The position numbers were made by a program, and so were the translations under genes. The notes below the pieces were generated by a model. The model was not told where the DNA came from. It searched no databases and was given only the letters and a program-made list of their open reading frames with translations. Of a stretch of 64,000 nt of DNA, positions 51,533-63,034 are shown piece by piece; position 1 is the first letter of the stretch; each line of letters opens with the position of its first letter. Source of the DNA: Prasinococcaceae sp. CCMP 1430 (taxonomy: Eukaryota > Plantae > Prasinodermophyta); the NCBI GenBank assembly GCA_013416795.1, contig RQSC01000520.1, positions 11,280-75,279 of the forward strand. The letters run 5' to 3'.

Positions 51533-54353
<2,821 letters not shown>

Positions 54354-54576
54354 ATTCCTTTTGGCGAACTTATGTATAAGATGCGATTCCAGAGTGTAGC
54401 TCCCCGTCGCTCGCAGCGAGGTTGGCGCTTGCTTGCTCTGTTTGGAGGGGAAGCAGAGAGCGCGAGTGCGTGCGGCAGCATGGGGAGAAAGCCCTGATTA
54501 TAGAGTCGTCTTGCGAGCGCGCGCCGGCTCCTACCAGCGCCCAGCAAGCAGCGATTATTAGATGTGCTCTCTGCGG

Positions 54577-55827
54577 TCATTGCGCCTGGGCGGGCGGGCG
54601 CCGAGTGAATATGTCAGCTCGATGTCATCCAGGGGTCGACGTCAACTCGCGGGCTCGCACCCTGATGCACGAGTCGCCGGGCGCGCAGCGCCTCTTCCCC
54701 CCCACACGCTCCATGAGGGCGATGTGTTCCCATCCCATACACCCCCCACACACCCCACACCCCGCACCACTTACCCTCAGGGCGGCCTCTGCTTCCTCCG
54801 CGAGCGCAACGAGCTCCGCGGCGCTCGCGCGGTTTTTGGGGTCTGCTTGCAAGCAGCGCTTGACGAAGCGCTCGATGCGCTCCGAGCTGCGCGCCGCTGG
54901 CAGCGCATCGTACGCGCAGTTGACGATGGCGCGCCCGAGCGTGTAGTAATTGAGGCCTGGCTTGTCGAAGGGCGAGCGCAGCGCCGCCATCTCGTATGCC
55001 AGGCAGCCAAGCGACCACACATCGCTCGCGAAGTCGTACGGCTTGCCTCTGATGACCTCGGGGCTCATGTAGAAAGGTGTTCCCACCATCGACTGCAGCT
55101 CGACCGTTTTGGACGACATCACGCGCGAGAGGCCCAGATCGCCAAGCTTGACTGTGCCGTCGGACCCCAAGAAGACATTGCTGGGCTTGAGATCCCGGTG
55201 CATTACCCTCCGCGAGTGCATGTGCGCGAGGCCACTCGCTGCCTGCCGCAGCACCGACCAAATCGTGTGCTCGGGCAGGAGCTCGGAAGCCAATGCCTCC
55301 CCATCGCTGCTGGCGCCGACATCGCCGGCGCCGACCCCGCCGCGTGCGGCCCCCGCGCCGCCCGCGCACTCCTCCCCACGCACCCTCGCGAGCAGTTTGC
55401 CGACGTCGCCAGCGTCTGCCCACTCGAGCACGATGGCCAGCTCGTTGTCCTCCAAGAAGCTGTCCACGTAGCGAACGATGTTGGGATGCTCAAGGGTCTG
55501 GAGCGAGCGCACCTCATTGACGCAGTCTGCGCGCCTCTCCTTGTCCATGATGGAGAATATCTGCACGCGTTTGAGTGCCACGCGCTCGCCCGTGCGCCGG
55601 TCGGACGCGCAGAAGACGGTGGAGTACTTCCCGGAGCCAATGGGCGCGCCGACGTCGTACTGCGAGAGGCGGCTCGACGAGCGAGGTCGCACGCCGCTCC
55701 CGCTCGCCCCGCTGCCCGACGAGCCGCCCGAGCACGACGTCACCGCGAGGGCGGGGGGCGCATCGTCCATTGACATGTCGAGTGCTGGCTCCTGCGCGTG
55801 GGCGGCGCCAGACATGGCCTCCTCCAT
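54577..55827 (-). CDS. NIMA-related kinase, NEK6/7-like; complement(join(54577..54585,54775..55827))
   Basis: IGSGKYSTV, VALKRVQIF.IMD..RADCVNEV, LEWADAGD, HRDLKPSNVF, DLGLSR, SMVGTPFYMSPE. The last exon is tentative. Confidence 0.9.
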
Positions 55828-56766
55828 CGCGCGCGCGCTTCGTCACTATCCCTAAGCGCGCACGCGAGCCGCAGCCGCAGCGACTACCTGATGAGTGTCA
55901 CCAGCGCAGCGCCGTGGTGGGTCTGTCGGGCGACTCGACGGGAAGCCGCGCGGCACCGCCCCGCCCCGCCGGCCGGGCGCCCCCTTTTTTCTTCGCCGCC
56001 CATTTCGCGCGCATTTACGCGCGAATATTTCCGCCCAAAACGCGCCCGCAAAAAAAAAGGGGGCCGGCGGGGGACCGGGCGACCAACCCTACGGATTGCG
56101 CCGCTCAATTTCAAAATGGCCTCGCGAGTAGAATGGCGAATGGGCTTTAAAAGCGGATTGGGAGGTGGACGAAATCGGATCTGTGGTATCGTCCGATCGG
56201 GGGGCGGCGACGCGACGCGCCGCGGCCACGCGCGCGGCAGCGCGCGCGACTCGTTGATCCGACCAGTCGTGGTGGTGGGAAGGGTGTGTCTCCGCGCGCG
56301 CCCGCCGTCGGGGAACCGGTCCCTCCTCAAAAAAATACGCGCAGGGCAAAACAAAACGCTCCTACCGTACATAAAAATCAACCGCCAACAAAAACCGTTA
56401 AAAAAGGGTATCACATCATCGCACCAATCCCAAATCGGCAAATCCATCGGAGCGGATCGCCCGGCGTTCGTCGTGGACACAACATGCCATCAAAAAGCAC
56501 CCGCGAAAACTGTGTTTTAACCACGGGAGAGATTTTTTGTCGTGCGTGCTGCCTGCGGTCTTCGGCGCAGTGCAATTTGACGTGCAGCGCCGCGAGGGCC
56601 GTTGGGGCGCTGGATGGGGGAAAATCTGCAGCGCGCGCCCGCACGCGCGCGCGCTTCCGATATCGCGCCGATGTGACGCGGCGGCGTGGGGCGCCACAGA
56701 GCGCACGCGCGGGGGGGTGGGGAGGGGGGTGAGGAGGGTTGGTGCCGCGTGTCATCGGCCGTGGAG

Positions 56767-58147
56767 ATGGCGGCGCCGCTGCTGCTCTTCTGCGACGGCG
56801 CCTCGCGCCGCAACGGCGCGCGCGCCAAGGGCGACAGCGCGGCCGCGGCCGTGCTGCTGGACGCGGCGACGGAGGCGCTGCTCGTGCAGCGCGCCGTGAG
56901 GCTCGCCGAGGGGACGACGAACAACGCCGCGGAGTACGAGGCGCTGCTGATGGGCATACGCATGGCGGCGGCGATCAGGGGCAAGAAGGCCGCGGTGCGC
57001 GCGTTCACCGACAGCGAGCTGCTGTGCAAGCAGTTCCACGGCGAGTGCGGCTGCAAGGTGCCCGCGCTCCAGGAGATGCTCAAGGAGCTGCGGCGCTCCG
57101 TGCGCATGGTCGGGAGCTTCTCGCTGCGCCACGTGCCGCGCGAGCAGAACAAGGCCGCCGATTCGTTGGCAAATGGCGCTCTTGACGAGCTTGATGTGGG
57201 CAAGTCGTTCACGATGGGGCCCGAGGCCAAGGATGTGCGCGCTGCAGAGGAGCAGCACGCAGCGGCAGTGGAGACGGTCGCGGGCACCTCCAATGCTGGA
57301 ACGTGCATCGTCCTCACGGAGGCCACACTCGCGGCGCACGAGCTCGCGACTGCCAAGCGCGAGCTTCGCATGTTCTGCTGCGACGTGCACGGGCCATTCT
57401 GGAAGCGTGTCGATGCTCACAAGCCCGTCGCGAGATGCTTCGGCGTGGCCGGCACGAGGGAGTGCTCGAAGGCAAAGCTCGACCCGTTGCCACGCAGGTG
57501 CGCGCGCGCGAGGGAGCGCGCGCGCGCGCGCGAGCGAACCGGCGCGTGCGACCGCCAGCGACTTTGCGTGCACTACTGACAGATGCCACGCGCGCGCGCG
57601 CGCGCTCGTGATCACATGCACGCCCTCGAACACCTCCAGCGAGGAGCGCGGCGAGGGGCTCTTCCATTGCACCACGTGCGGACAGAAGTGGGCAGACAAG
57701 CTGGCGAAGCGCGGTGTGCCTCAGCCGTGCCCCGGGGAGGCCCCGGACGGCAGCGAAGGCGAGTGCGGCACACTGGTCGAGCCGCATAAGCTGCGGCCGA
57801 TGAAGTCGCTGCACGCGCGCGCGAGATACCACCGCGAACAGAGGAGGGCCTACCACAAAGCTCTGTCGTCAACGAGCAGCGTTAGCAGTGCGGATTCCAC
57901 CTGGGTCAAAGTTGAGGGCGAGGGCGTTGGGGCCGGCGCCCCAGCTGCCAGGAGCGGTGGGCGGAAGCATCCACACCGTTCCAAGCATAAGTGCGCGCTG
58001 TGCGAGAGCGGCGAGTGCCGGCGAAAGCCACCGGCATCACGGCCTCACGAGTCGTCGGGCTCCACGATCTCTAATGCGTCCACCGTCAGTATGATGAGCC
58101 AGCTCTCCCTGAGCTATTTCAGAATGGAGACCCCGCCCGTCGCGTAG
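56767..58147 (+). CDS. RNase HI (archaeal/actinobacterial-type) fused to a Shiftless (SHFL/C19orf66, UPF0515)-like zinc-ribbon domain; join(56767..57497,57640..58147), 412 aa
   Basis: RNase H residues D10 (FCDGASR), E56 (TNNAAEY), D82 (TDSELL), H122 and D132 (NKAADSLAN). Then LTEATL, RMFCCDVHGPFWKRV..KPVARC, LDPLPRSEERGEGLFHCTTC, QPC..CG.LVEP and SRPHESSGST. Intron 57498..57639 is GT-AG. Confidence 0.85.
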
Positions 58148-58258
58148 TGGGCGTGGAGCGCGCGCGCGCGCGCGCAGACTAGCGGGAGCTCAGTGTGTAT
58201 AGTCTATAGTAGTACTACTGTATGTACATGAACGACGTGCCTCGTGACCAAAGGAGAC

Positions 58259-59900
58259 TCAGTGCTTCGTGACAATCGTGCGGCGCTCGGAGAACGCGTC
58301 AAGCGAGTGGTGGCCCCCCTCGCGCCCGAGGCCCGAGTCTTTCATTCCCCCGAAGGCAACGCGCAGGTCGCGCTGCAGCCAGCAGTTCACCCACACCGTC
58401 CCCGCATCAATGGCGCGCGCGATACGCTGCGCGGCCCCGCTGTCGCCGGCGAAGACGCTCGCCGCGAGGCCGTACTTGGTGCCATTCGCGAGCGCAATCG
58501 CCTCCTCCTCGGTGTCGAAGGCTTGCAAGCTGGTCATAGGGCCAAATGTCTCGTTCTGCGTGATCCGGTCGTCCTGCTTGGCGCCCTCGAGTACGCAAGG
58601 CGCAACGAAGCATCCTCGTTGGCAGCGCTCCGGGAGGCCGGCGGGCGTGCCACCGCCGCACAGCAAGGTCGCGCCATCGTCGGCAGCTTCTTGCAACATT
58701 CGGCGCACCTTTTCCACCTGATTAGGATGGATGAGCGGGCCGCATTGCGTGCGACTGTCCTCGGGGTCGCCGACAACGAGCTCGCGCGCGGCATCCACGA
58801 GCGCGCCGCGCACCTTGTCGTACACGGCGCGCTGCACCAGTACACGCTCGCAGCACAGGCAAATCTGTCCATTGTTGAGGAAAGCCGCGCGAGCGAGCTC
58901 CCGCCCCACCAGATCCGTATCGGCGTCCGCCATCACCACGGCCGCGTTCTTGCCTCCTAGCTCGAGCGAGCAGCGCTGCATCGCGCAAGGAGGGTGTGGC
59001 AAGCGGCGAGGGAGAGAGCGAGAGGAAAAGAGAGAGAGAGGGAGGGGAGAAGAAATAGAATGAGCACGGGCGAGAACGTGCGCACGACCGCGTCGCCGTA
59101 GCATTCGCGCGGACTGGCATCGCGAGCAGCACACGTGCACGCGGTCGCCAGCGCGCGCGCGCACCTTAAAGAGCCTGCCGCAGTGCCCGCCCACGATGCG
59201 GCCGGTGACCGTGCCGCCGGTGAAGGAGACCATCTTGACGCTCGGGTGCCTCACGAGCGCGTCGCCAGCGCACGCGCCACGGCCGTGGACCACGTTGAAA
59301 ACACCGGGGGGGATGCCCGCCTCGGCGACGATCTCGCCAAGCGCGAGCGCTGTGAGCGGCGACCACTCGCTGGGCTTTGCCACCACGGTGTTACCCATGG
59401 CGAGCGCGGGCGCCACCTTCCACGTCAGCAGGTACAGCGGCAGGTTCCACGGCGTGATGAGCGCGCAAACGCCGTGGGGCGAGCGCTCCTCGTAGTTGAT
59501 CACGCCGTCGGACAGATGCGCAGGCGTGGCGCCGGCCTCGTGGCGCACGAAGGATGCGAAGAAGCGAAAGTTCTCCTCTGCGCGTGCGACATCCACCACG
59601 CGCGCCAGCTGGCGCGGCTTGCCGCAGTCGAGGCTCTCGAGCAGCGCGAGGTCGTCGGCGCGGGCGACGATGGCATCGGCGACGCGGACGAGCGCGTCGC
59701 AGCGTCGGTCGACGCTCCAGCCGCGCCATTCGGCGCCCGCCCTCCGCGCGGCCGCCACCGCCGCGTCGACGTCCTCCTCCGAAGAGTCGGCGACGAGCGT
59801 CAGCTCCTCGCCGTACGCCGGGGCGATGTTCGAGAGGGCGTGCGCCGGAGCGCCGCCGCCGCCGCCGCCGGCCGCCGCCTCCGCCNNNNNNNNNNNNNNN
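58259..59900 (-). CDS. ALDH8A1: 2-aminomuconic semialdehyde dehydrogenase (ALDH8A1-like); intron 58976..59164; start lies in or near the N gap at 59886-59900
   Basis: ESLDCGKP, ITPWNLPLYLLTWKVAPALA (ALDH8 signature), FTGGT, SLELGGKN, catalytic NGQICLC, ETFGP and FGGMKDSGLGREG. Confidence 0.88.
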
Positions 59901-60140
59901 NCCGCCCCAGCCGCCCCCGCCAGCCAACCGCAGCGCCCCGCTGCGCCGCATGCGCGTGCGCGTGCGCGCGCCCGCGCGCGCAATCCCGACGCGCCTCTTC
60001 GTTGCGCAGTGTATCATACCCACGGGAAACTCTTTTTGGCCCGGCGCGCGAGTGCGCGCGCGCGCGCGCGCGCGCCCGTTTTTTTTTTTGCGCGCGCGTC
60101 AGTTCCCCCCTTCGAAAACGCCGAACGATGTGCATTACTG

Positions 60141-60186
60141 TAACCCTGATTTAACCCTACAGTATACTGTAATTGTAACCCTAACC
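60141..60186. promoter_or_regulatory. Three TAACCCT (telo-box-like) motifs around a perfect 14-bp palindrome TACAGTATACTGTA in the ALDH8A1/KMO bidirectional promoter
   Basis: Read directly: TAACCCT at 60141, 60152 and ~60177; palindrome 60158..60171. Confidence 0.4.
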
Positions 60187-60500
60187 TCGACGCAACGTTT
60201 TTTTTCCCACAAGCGCGCGCGTTCCGGGGGCGCGTTCCGCGGGTTGAGACGATCGTTGGGATTGATTGATTGACGCCGGAGCGCTTCTCACTTTTCGGCG
60301 GAGCGAGCGGGCGTCGCTCGGCCCGCGCGCGCGCGCTGCCGCGCGCATCGGTGCGCAAGCAGCTGGGGGTCGTCGGCGCGCTCGTCGGCGCGGGGGGGGG
60401 CTCGAACGGACACTCGTGGGCGCGCGCGCGGCCCAGCCGCGGGAGCAGGCGCAGGCGCGGGGGCGGGGACGGGGACGGCGGTACGCGGCCCTAGGACGGC

Positions 60501-63034
60501 ATGGTGACAATGTCGCAGGACACGCCGCCCGTGGTGGTCGTTGGGGCGGGGCCGGTCGGCTGCGTGCTGGCGACGTGCCTTGCGCGCCGCGGTCGGCGCG
60601 TGCGCGTGTTCGAACAGCGCGCCGACCCCCGGGCGGGCACGGCGGGCTGGGGCGCCGAGGGGCGCTCGATCAACCTGGTCGTCACCGGACGCGGCTTCGC
60701 GGCACTCGAGCGCTTCGGCCTCGCCGACGCGCTGCGCGCCATCTCGGTGCCCATCCGCGGCCGCATGGTGCACAAGGCCGACGGGTCCACCGCGTACCAG
60801 CCTTATGGGATCGGCCACGAGGCCAACTACTCGATCTCGCGCGGGGAGATGAACAAAGAGCTCATGACGCTCGCGGAGGAGGTGCGAGTGCGCCCCGAAT
60901 CGGCCCTTCGCGCGCGCAGCGGCACCTCCAACAGCCGCGCCTGTGCCGGCGCCGCCCACACGCCGCGCGCGACGAAGCTCGCGCTGACCGCGCGGCGAAA
61001 CTCCCGCACACACACACCGTCCCCATCCTCGTGCGCGACGCGCCCGCGCCGCAGGCCGGCGTTGAGATCGCCTTCGGCGCCTCGTACGATGCGAAAGCGA
61101 GCGCGCCGCTCGCCGGCCGACACGTGGTGATCACCGCCGACGGCTCGCGGGTGGAGGTGCCCGCGAAGACGTACGTCTTTGCGGCCGATGGCGCGGGCTC
61201 GCGCGTACGCGCGGCGCTCGCTGCGGAGTGCGCGCGCGGCGAGGGCGGCGAGGTGACCTTCAAGGCGCGTAAGGAGCCGCTGGGCCATGGCTACAAGGAG
61301 GTGCTCTTCCCGCTGGGCAGGGACGGCGCGCCCACGATGCGCTCCGACGCGCTGCACATCTGGCCGAGAGGCCATCACATGCTCATGGCTCTGGCCAACC
61401 TGGACGGCTCCTTCACGGGCACCGTCTATCTGCCGGAGGAAGGCAAGGACAGCTTCGACGAGTGTGCCCAGGCGGGCGAGTTGGGTTCCAAGGACTTCTT
61501 TTCAACGCACTACCCCGACGCCACGCCGCTCCTCGACGACGAAATGCTGGACGTCCTGCTGCCCGCCGAGCGCGGCGGGGGCGCGCTGGGCATGCTGGGG
61601 ACCATGCGAGTCTCGACGTTCGCGCCCGCGCCCAGGCTGGCGCTCATCGGTGATGCCGCACACGCGATTGTACCGTTCTTCGGCCAGGGCTGCAACTGCT
61701 GCTTCGAAGATTGCGCGACGCTCGATGCAGCCATCGAAGCGGCTGGCGGCGCCGCCACCGACGCCAAGCTCGACGTGGCGGTTGCGGCCTGGGCGCGTGA
61801 GCGCAAGGTCAATGCTGACGCCATTGCTGACATGGCGCTGGAGAACTTTGAGGAAATGCGCTCAAAGGTGGGTGACGCGGCCTTCCTGCGCAAGAAGGCG
61901 CTTGAGCACGCCGTCGAGGAGGCCATGCCGGAGATGATGCGCTCGCGCTACGCGATGGTCGCGTCGTCGACCATTTCGTACGCTACATGCTTCCAGGCGG
62001 GCTTGGCCATTGAGGGCATCCTGGCGGAGCTCGCGGCGTCCATGGAGGATGACGCGCCCGCCGAGGCCTTCGATCGCCCGCTCGCGCGTCGCCTCATCGC
62101 CGAGCGCCTCACGCCCATACTGCACGGCGCGGGCGTGTCCGACCTGTCGTTTGGCTCAGGTGGCGCCAAGCGGAAGGTCGGCATTCTCGGATACGGTCAT
62201 CTCGGGCAGCACCTGTACGGCGCTATCCAAGACGGCGCGCCGGGCACTGAGGGCCTCGAGGTTGCGTTCGTGTGGAATCGCTCCGCTGACAAGCTCGAAT
62301 CGCTGCCCGAGGCGCTGCGCCTGACGGGCGACGCCTCGGTGTGTGTGCGCGAGGCGCAGGCGCGCGGCGTCGGCGTGGTGGTCGAGGTAGCGCATCCCAG
62401 CATCTCGGTGGCCCTCGCAGCGCCCCTGCTGCGATCGGGCGTGGACTTCGTGTGTGGCTCGCCCACGGCGCTCGCCGACTCGAAGGCTGAGGCTTCCATG
62501 CGCGAGGCCACCAAAGGCGTGCAGAGCGGTGGCTTGTACATTCCCAGTGGCGCATTCTGGGGGGCGCAGGACGTCCAGGCACTCTCCAACCGCGGCGGCC
62601 TCGCCGAGCTTGTGGTCACCATGAAGAAGCACCCGTCGAGCTTCAGGCTGAACGACGCCACCTTGGACGCGAAGCGCGAGACGGCGACCAAGGAGGGCTC
62701 TGGCGAGACGCTGCTGTACGAGGGCCCCGTGCGGGGGCTGTGCCCCCTTGCGCCAAATAACGTGAACACGATGGCGTGCGCGGCGCTCGCGGCGGCGGGC
62801 TTGGGCTTCGATGGGGTGACAGGGAGGCTGGTCGCGGACCCCTCCCTGGTGACGCACGAGATCGAAATTGAGACGCGCGGGCCGACTCGCCCGGACGGCT
62901 CGCGCTTCAGCTGCGTCACCAAGCGGTCGAGCCCCGCGCCTCCCGGTGCAGTGACCTCAAAGGCCACATACGGCTCGTTCCTGGAGAGCCTCGTGCGCGC
63001 AAGGGGGCGCGGCGCGGGCGTGCACTTCGTGTGA
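60501..63034 (+). CDS. KMO: Kynurenine 3-monooxygenase fused to an ASPDH (aspartate-dehydrogenase-domain) protein; join(60501..60881,61055..63034), 786 aa
   Basis: KMO motifs VVGAGPVG, GRSINL, ALHIWPRG, LIGDAAHAIVPFFGQG and NADAIADMALENF. ASPDH motifs KVGILGYGHLG, VEVAHP, GSPTAL, YIPSGAFWG, MKKHP and CPLAPNNVNTMA. No stop codon between the two domains. Confidence 0.92.

Follow-up and report, generated by a model that had tools for sequence, protein, structure and literature searches.

A Shiftless-like zinc-finger core behind an archaeal-type RNase HI domain in a marine green alga

A spliced gene in the window, i.e., the whole 64,000-nucleotide stretch of GC-rich eukaryotic DNA that was analysed, raises the question of whether an RNase H domain has been joined within one protein to the zinc-finger core of Shiftless (SHFL, also C19orf66 or RyDEN), and of what such a protein might do. 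In the accessible part of the SHFL literature, SHFL is treated as a vertebrate interferon effector without enzyme activity, one phylogeny having the frog as its outgroup, and the activities given in the available portions of PMC9230503 and PMC12716391 are RNA binding, ribosome surveillance, and antiviral restriction, none of which is enzymatic. The earlier note on this locus knew of no description of the architecture, and the literature searches, which covered titles and the starts of abstracts, mostly outside subscription papers, agree, having returned no report of an RNase H-SHFL fusion or of an algal SHFL. Likewise, the three supplementary text files of PMC7455551 contain no mention of the gene identifier, RNase H, or UPF0515.

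The architecture is already in databases as an unremarked Pfam pair, and it is a real, conserved, and apparently undescribed variant that joins two known families. Judged from its sequence, the fusion, which is encoded by a marine green alga and several metagenomic organisms, is likely to be an RNA-cutting defence or surveillance factor.

Gene structure, transcript and surroundings

The existence of one spliced open reading frame of 412 codons with a GT-AG intron, as proposed in the earlier note, was borne out by its translation (Table 1), by a transcript contig, and by intron-free homologues. A single 1614-nt contig of run X1, whose RNA nature is a software guess, was compared with the window up to 58500, and it follows the DNA from 56868 to 57494, skips 142 nt bounded by GT and AG, and resumes at 57637 up to 58500, with zero mismatches. 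The proposed 57497/57640 junction is thus spanned in one of the four runs, given that X2-X4 (X3 and X4 being small-share runs) provided only short non-spanning pieces. In this contig, the reading frame runs on from the RNase H into the zinc-finger part, the joint between them lying inside exon 1, and the contig starts at 56868, which places the extreme 5' end of the gene outside the transcript coverage. The intron has a branch-like CTGAC at 57576.

Table 1. Features of the RNase H-SHFL gene and of two neighbouring frames, in window positions
Feature	Positions	Strand	Description
Coding sequence	56767..57497 joined to 57640..58147	+	412 codons and stop
Exon 1	56767..57497	+	codons 1-243 and two bases of codon 244; RNase H, linker helices, zinc finger 1
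Intron	57498..57639	+	142 nt, GT..AG, (CG)n runs
Exon 2	57640..58147	+	zinc finger 2, basic helix, low-complexity spacer, third Cys/His site, Ser/Thr loop, stop
Archaeal-type RNase HI domain, aa 1-142	56767..57192	+	Pfam, PDB sequence matches, structural match
Linker, predicted helices 154-176 and 185-195	57193..57366	+	second helix matches the last helix of the SHFL bundle (L183 = human L87)
SHFL ZF1 equivalent	57367..57486	+	predicted ligands C205, H208, C224, probably C233; human C112/C115/C132/C135
SHFL ZF2 equivalent	57641..57796	+	C254/C257/C274/C286; human C155/C158/C174/C177
Putative third zinc site, H360-C362-C365-C370	57986..58018	+	motif in protist homologues
Ser/Thr loop like the SHFL hyperphosphorylation loop	58046..58102	+	H380, S385, T386 = human H244, S249, T250
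Aldehyde dehydrogenase	58259..59830	-	convergent
FAD-dependent monooxygenase	60495..63034	+	apparently continues in the same frame as an aspartate dehydrogenase-like domain

The 90% cluster that contains the window protein also holds P0068, i.e., Prasinoderma coloniale PRCOL_00002985-RA, which agrees with it at all 408 aligned residues and has the same start codon. Two homologues, P0005 and P0126, also start there. Four junction residues that are conserved in relatives (window 57486-57497) are absent from P0068, because the donor of the public model sits 12 nt upstream, which is probably an annotation error. P0005, P0126, and P0004 have no intron at this point and read straight across the junction, and these homologues, together with the X1 contig, favour the 57497/57640 junction over that of the public model.

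The X1 contig also continues past the stop codon (58148-58500) into the convergent aldehyde dehydrogenase gene, which suggests overlapping 3' ends. Given that it reaches the 3' end of this second gene, the contig alone is no proof of one mRNA.

The neighbours of the gene are a DEAD-box helicase, a divergent protein kinase, the aldehyde dehydrogenase, and the FAD monooxygenase/aspartate dehydrogenase frame, and the five flanking frames that were scanned encode housekeeping enzymes, with no reverse transcriptase or integrase. In the region 52000-62000, no terminal repeats, tandem copies, or mobile-element repeats were found, only (CG)n-type and short repeats. The gene is a resident nuclear gene and not a retroelement remnant. 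The (CG)n runs of this region mark introns and intergenic stretches, often beside poly-A or poly-T. Third-position GC was found in 119 of the 120 codons of the RNase H part (56767-57126) and at approximately 0.8 after it (57127-58147), with values of 0.8 to 0.97 in most coding blocks of the neighbouring genes.

The two halves of the protein

The four catalytic acids that were originally noticed in the RNase H half (D10/E56/D82/D132) are all found at these positions, and together with R125 they complete the active-site set. On residues 1-142, Pfam returns RVT_3 (1e-15) and RNase_H (4e-7), the archaeal or actinobacterial RNase HI models of NCBIfam match below their cut-offs, and a search of PDB sequences yields six matches, all of them archaeal-type RNases H, with LC11-RNase H1 at 1e-11. 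The AlphaFold model used here is that of P0068 (mean pLDDT 76, above 90 over most of the RNase H domain), in which the RNase H fold is matched by Foldseek at E 3e-11 and superposes on Halobacterium RNase H1 (4E19) with a Z of 22.3 and an rmsd of 1.4 over 133 aligned residues. As judged from its D-E-D-R-D set, the domain is of the archaeal (aRH) subtype of type 1 RNase H. According to PMC5348765, this subtype takes in the cellular RNase H1 of plants (AtRNH1A/B/C) as well as domains that several retroelements (Tat, L1, Chronos, and Utopia) have captured, all with the active-site Arg.

The fold, the D-E-D-R-D set, and approximately 30% identity are shared with 4E19, LC11-RNase H1 (3U3G), the N-domain of Mycobacterium tuberculosis Rv2228c (3HST), and the Sulfolobus enzyme (2EHG), although these archaeal-type RNases HI stand alone or with other partners, whereas the algal domain stands with an SHFL core. 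Unlike the plant AtRNH1 type, the algal protein has neither a hybrid-binding domain nor a transit peptide, there being no room for either before the RNase H and no such Pfam match. In the metagenomic variant P0001, the RNase H part is identical at 142 of 142 residues. The best 80 of at least 241 confirmed GTDB matches to the RNase H have 32-46% identity and are scattered over phyla, no specific bacterial donor standing out among them, and an SHFL core is absent from all of the 95 prokaryotic RNase H loci retrieved. In the ESM Atlas, the whole protein matched only prokaryotic RNase H clusters, under 0.9, and residues 176-243 gave no usable match.

The homology of the C-terminal half to SHFL, which the earlier note had argued from sequence blocks of the human protein, is now confirmed, with a likeness beyond chance. 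These blocks agree with the sequence of human SHFL in 9KBO, and the Pfam family UPF0515 (PF15135), whose gathering cut-off is 29.8 bits, is matched by P0068 at 33.1 bits, by P0005 at 57.1, and by P0126 at 58.3. The exons scanned singly match adjacent parts of the same profile (60-144 and 150-192) weakly, at E 0.008, and P0068 alone is also a weak match to human SHFL (E 0.0055). By contrast with such single sequences, a profile from 11 algal and protist core stretches finds 9KBO at E 9e-10, its next match being at 0.058, a second profile of protist homologues finds it at E 4e-12, and one from four rows of the fusion clade finds human SHFL at E 2e-4. Single exon pieces searched against PDB sequences returned nothing meaningful.

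The structural comparison bore out this homology most clearly in a relative. In a Foldseek search with the model of the RNase H-free protein P0023 (pLDDT 69), the top four rows are all chains of 9KBO, the best at E 9.5e-5 and the first other entry at E 1.1. In the case of P0068, 9KBO is the sole match to the C-terminal part among the 50 listed entries, with residues 196-294 superposed on 103-189, but this match is a middling one (Z 6.1, rmsd 5.8, 82 aligned). The claim that the blocks follow the same order in both proteins holds overall, except that the C-terminal His-Ser-Ser-Gly-Ser-Thr block, while in the right order, is not significant alone (-1.8).

Like human SHFL, the algal protein has the last helix of the bundle followed by ZF1 and ZF2, and then, in the same order as in the human protein, a putative third Cys/His site and a candidate for the His-x-Ser-Ser-Gly-Ser-Thr loop. 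They differ in that the RNase H occupies the place of most of the N-terminal helical bundle of SHFL, in the long low-complexity spacer of the algal protein, and in the absence from it of a Glu-rich, acidic tail. The spacing from the RNase H to L183 is approximately 40 residues, compared with 86 in human SHFL, which leaves helix 1 with R13/R16/H20/K10/R14 without a counterpart. The full N-terminal bundle (human aa 1-101), with R13/R16/H20 of pocket 1, is thus absent, and the model shows two helices.

The human ligand and phosphate-binding positions used for the comparison are those of the crystal structure paper (PMC12716391). In the algal ZF1, His takes the place of the second Cys, and the probable fourth ligand, C233, is assigned across an insertion that precedes it. 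At the phosphate-binding positions R121/K127/R138/H244, the algal protein has K213/K219/K237/H380, and it is basic or identical at R121/K127/R131/R138/H244. Of the RNA-binding arginines R131/R133/R136, the first is kept as R223 and R133 is replaced by F225, while R231/K235/K237 come after an insertion; human R97 reads L193. Changes of R13A, R97A, and R131/R133/R136 are reported to impair the human protein.

The third Cys/His site follows an H-x-C-x2-C-x2-G-x-C motif that is found in 20 of the 27 protist homologues examined. The human ZF3, on the other hand, is an HCCC finger of H203/C205/C210/C223, as given in PMC12716391, from which the algal site differs in spacing and to which its alignment is not significant. 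In the Ser/Thr loop, serines stand at every third residue from 382 to 397 (including 388, 391, 394, and 397), and human T253, which is described as essential in PMC12724340, reads N389 in register. The absence of most of the bundle, of R97 and R133, of T253 in register, and of the acidic tail, together with the other spacing of ZF3, characterizes the algal protein as a homologue with a replaced head rather than as an orthologue-like copy, and the interferon induction of human SHFL cannot apply to an alga.

Distribution of the fusion and the heads of other protist homologues

A phmmer search with residues 176-243 against 1.84 billion representatives resulted in 22 matches, 13 of which were kept, including the window's own variant. 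The nine dropped (P0002, P0006, P0008, P0009, P0015, P0016, P0017, P0021, and P0022) were repeat or DUF4379-type zinc-finger proteins. A search of longer proteins with a core profile gave 25 matches among the 7993 candidates scored, with an RNase H annotation on one of the 25, and a search with a fusion profile gave four.

The fusion was seen in only five 90% clusters, with two other intact and two partial examples that belong to one clade. The intact examples, P0005 (193 of 392 residues identical to the window protein) and P0126 (200 of 388), are single-frame fusions with all four acids and the Arg, and their SHFL cores are 56-69% identical compared with 45-46% for their RNase H domains. P0014 has only the second half of the RNase H, in which the last Asp is Tyr. 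P0004 begins with the RNase H tail, probably because an intron was missed by the gene caller. The same junction and domain order are kept across fusion proteins of 38-57% identity. Among the 25 cores of one tree, all five rows that bear an RNase H fall into a single group (100/99). In the other tree, built from 100 RNase H rows, the fused domains, four in all, group against the 96 others with weak support (79), both trees being unrooted and containing neither animal SHFL nor plant RNase H1 nor retroelement aRH.

A viral source of the SHFL core was sought in four IMG/VR pattern scans, which are weak given that they required near-exact words, and by tblastn of phage records, and both returned lone RNase H matches only. 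One scan of a JGI metagenome gave 14 prokaryote-like RNase H loci and no fusion.

The SHFL core, the third Cys/His site, and the Ser/Thr loop are also present in Prymnesium parvum KAL1519774.1, in Chaetoceros debilis A0A7S3PVH9, and in metagenomic clusters, but these proteins have no RNase H, their heads being of low complexity, PARP-like, or composed of Stc1-like zinc fingers and an unnamed domain. For example, the metagenomic P0050, P0052, P0061, P0081, and P0116 have the core behind a PARP/ADP-ribosyltransferase-like domain with His-Gly-Thr and Gly-Ile-Tyr motifs, for which Pfam PARP is matched at E 0.016-0.02 in P0050 and P0081. The PARP-headed SHFL is a candidate for a second armed Shiftless, and its head may resemble the antiviral Gig2 proteins of fish. 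Conflict systems typically exchange their effector heads in this way.

In another set of proteins (P0062, P0063, and P0065 of the Chaetoceros cluster, P0058, P0064, and P0053), the core stands behind an unnamed domain of approximately 90 residues, which in most cases precedes Stc1-like zinc fingers (up to many of them in P0064). As in human SHFL, Cys-x2-Cys in ZF1 and an acidic tail are present in the diatom-cluster forms. A further four SHFL-like proteins (P0010, P0012, P0019, and P0128) begin with a zinc finger of four Cys, and their third Cys/His site is preceded by a long Gly-rich spacer.

Possible functions of the fusion

The best explanation at present, which is put forward tentatively, is that of an armed Shiftless that would defend the cell against RNA or reverse-transcribing parasites, its core binding structured or foreign RNA and its nuclease cutting what is bound. 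The ZF1-ZF2 region would bind RNA and the ribosome, as in human SHFL, and the RNase H domain would cut RNA:DNA hybrids and perhaps dsRNA as well. The protein may be switched by phosphorylation of its Ser/Thr loop, given that the phosphate-binding positions of human SHFL are kept, and the location would be the cytosol or the nucleus, since no N-terminal extension precedes the RNase H. Inhibition of -1 frameshifting may occur as well, although this reading does not require it. Some archaeal RNases H cut dsRNA, according to the available part of a review (PMC5603734), and mouse SHFL is reported, in the accessible portion of PMC10433982, to co-localise with viral dsRNA via its zinc finger, in which case both halves would have one substrate.

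The armed Shiftless reading is favoured by the homology seen with Pfam, profiles, and structure to a family for which no reported activity is enzymatic, by the joint conservation of both domains in P0005 and P0126 and the grouping of the fused rows in both trees, and by the different heads, PARP-like or Stc1-like, of other protist cores. It is weakened by the lost counterparts of human helix 1, R97, R133, and T253, by the position of the gene among housekeeping genes, with no tandem copy or mobile-element repeat nearby, by the Tyr of P0014, and by PADLOC, which returned no match for the seven proteins tested. In addition, RNase H is itself an activity that retroelements need and capture, as stated in PMC5348765.

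A narrower version, which follows the earlier note in supposing that gag-pol frameshifting is blocked and the hybrids of reverse transcription are destroyed, is less convincing. It would have to act in a genome with only 6.51% repeats (P. coloniale; available text of PMC7455551) and without human residues for RNA binding or frameshift inhibition (R13, R97, and R133), and retroelements themselves repeatedly capture this type of RNase H because they need its activity (PMC5348765, in the part consulted).

A nuclease-bearing SHFL in an early-branching green alga, with other heads elsewhere, suggests that the zinc-finger core is an old and modular RNA-targeting device. By extension, and at present an unlikely proposition, Shiftless could be an old sensor of eukaryotes for frameshifting or for structured RNA of parasites, on which protists mount interchangeable effectors (RNase H, PARP-like ADP-ribosyltransferase, or Stc1-like), with the algal protein as the first catalytic Shiftless, cutting viral dsRNA or RNA:DNA intermediates where it is bound, under the same phosphorylation loop as in humans. 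The fusion offers a direct test of what the core recognizes, because the sites that it binds would be marked by the cuts of the attached nuclease, and it provides a candidate antiviral gene in marine algae.

Rather less probable than the armed Shiftless is a housekeeping RNase H1 that is anchored on nucleic acids by the SHFL core in place of a hybrid-binding domain, and which would remove R-loops or RNA primers from the host DNA. The cellular RNase H1 of plants is also of the archaeal type (PMC5348765, sections consulted), the usual separate hybrid-binding domain (PMC12652420; bioRxiv 10.1101/662080, both in part) is absent here, and the housekeeping neighbours, the transcript contig in one run, and the complete identity of the RNase H part in P0001 would all suit such a role. 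A mere anchor, however, would not obviously need to keep the SHFL core in full, with its third Cys/His site and Ser/Thr loop, better than the RNase H is kept. The restriction of the fusion to five clusters and the single RNase H annotation among the longer SHFL-like matches also count against this reading.

RNase H1 requires a duplex substrate, which counts against an improbable third reading, in which ribosomes that have spontaneously frameshifted or stalled would be marked by the SHFL core, and the host mRNA would be cut by the RNase H fold, as part of translation quality control, with no special anti-parasite role. This reading would also predict a wider and steadier distribution than the swapped heads observed. 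It draws on the proposal that human SHFL arrests spontaneously frameshifted ribosomes and so feeds mRNA degradation (PMC10747187, available part), and the region of the human -1PRF domain (aa 164-199; PMC9230503, available part) is present as ZF2.

That two neighbouring genes of a compact genome were joined passively, each half remaining independent, is likewise improbable given the same junction and order in divergent proteins and the matching groupings in both domain trees, even though the genome has other fusions, such as KYU-HAAO, the only one named in the accessible text of PMC7455551, and the apparent FAD monooxygenase/aspartate dehydrogenase at 60.5-63.0 kb, third-position GC falls after the RNase H part, and the model gives no confident arrangement of the domains (pTM 0.47).

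Finally, the frame at 60.5-63.0 kb and the adjoining aldehyde dehydrogenase are possibly a fusion and cluster of the tryptophan/NAD pathway. The FAD-dependent monooxygenase of this frame is one that we take to be kynurenine 3-monooxygenase-like.
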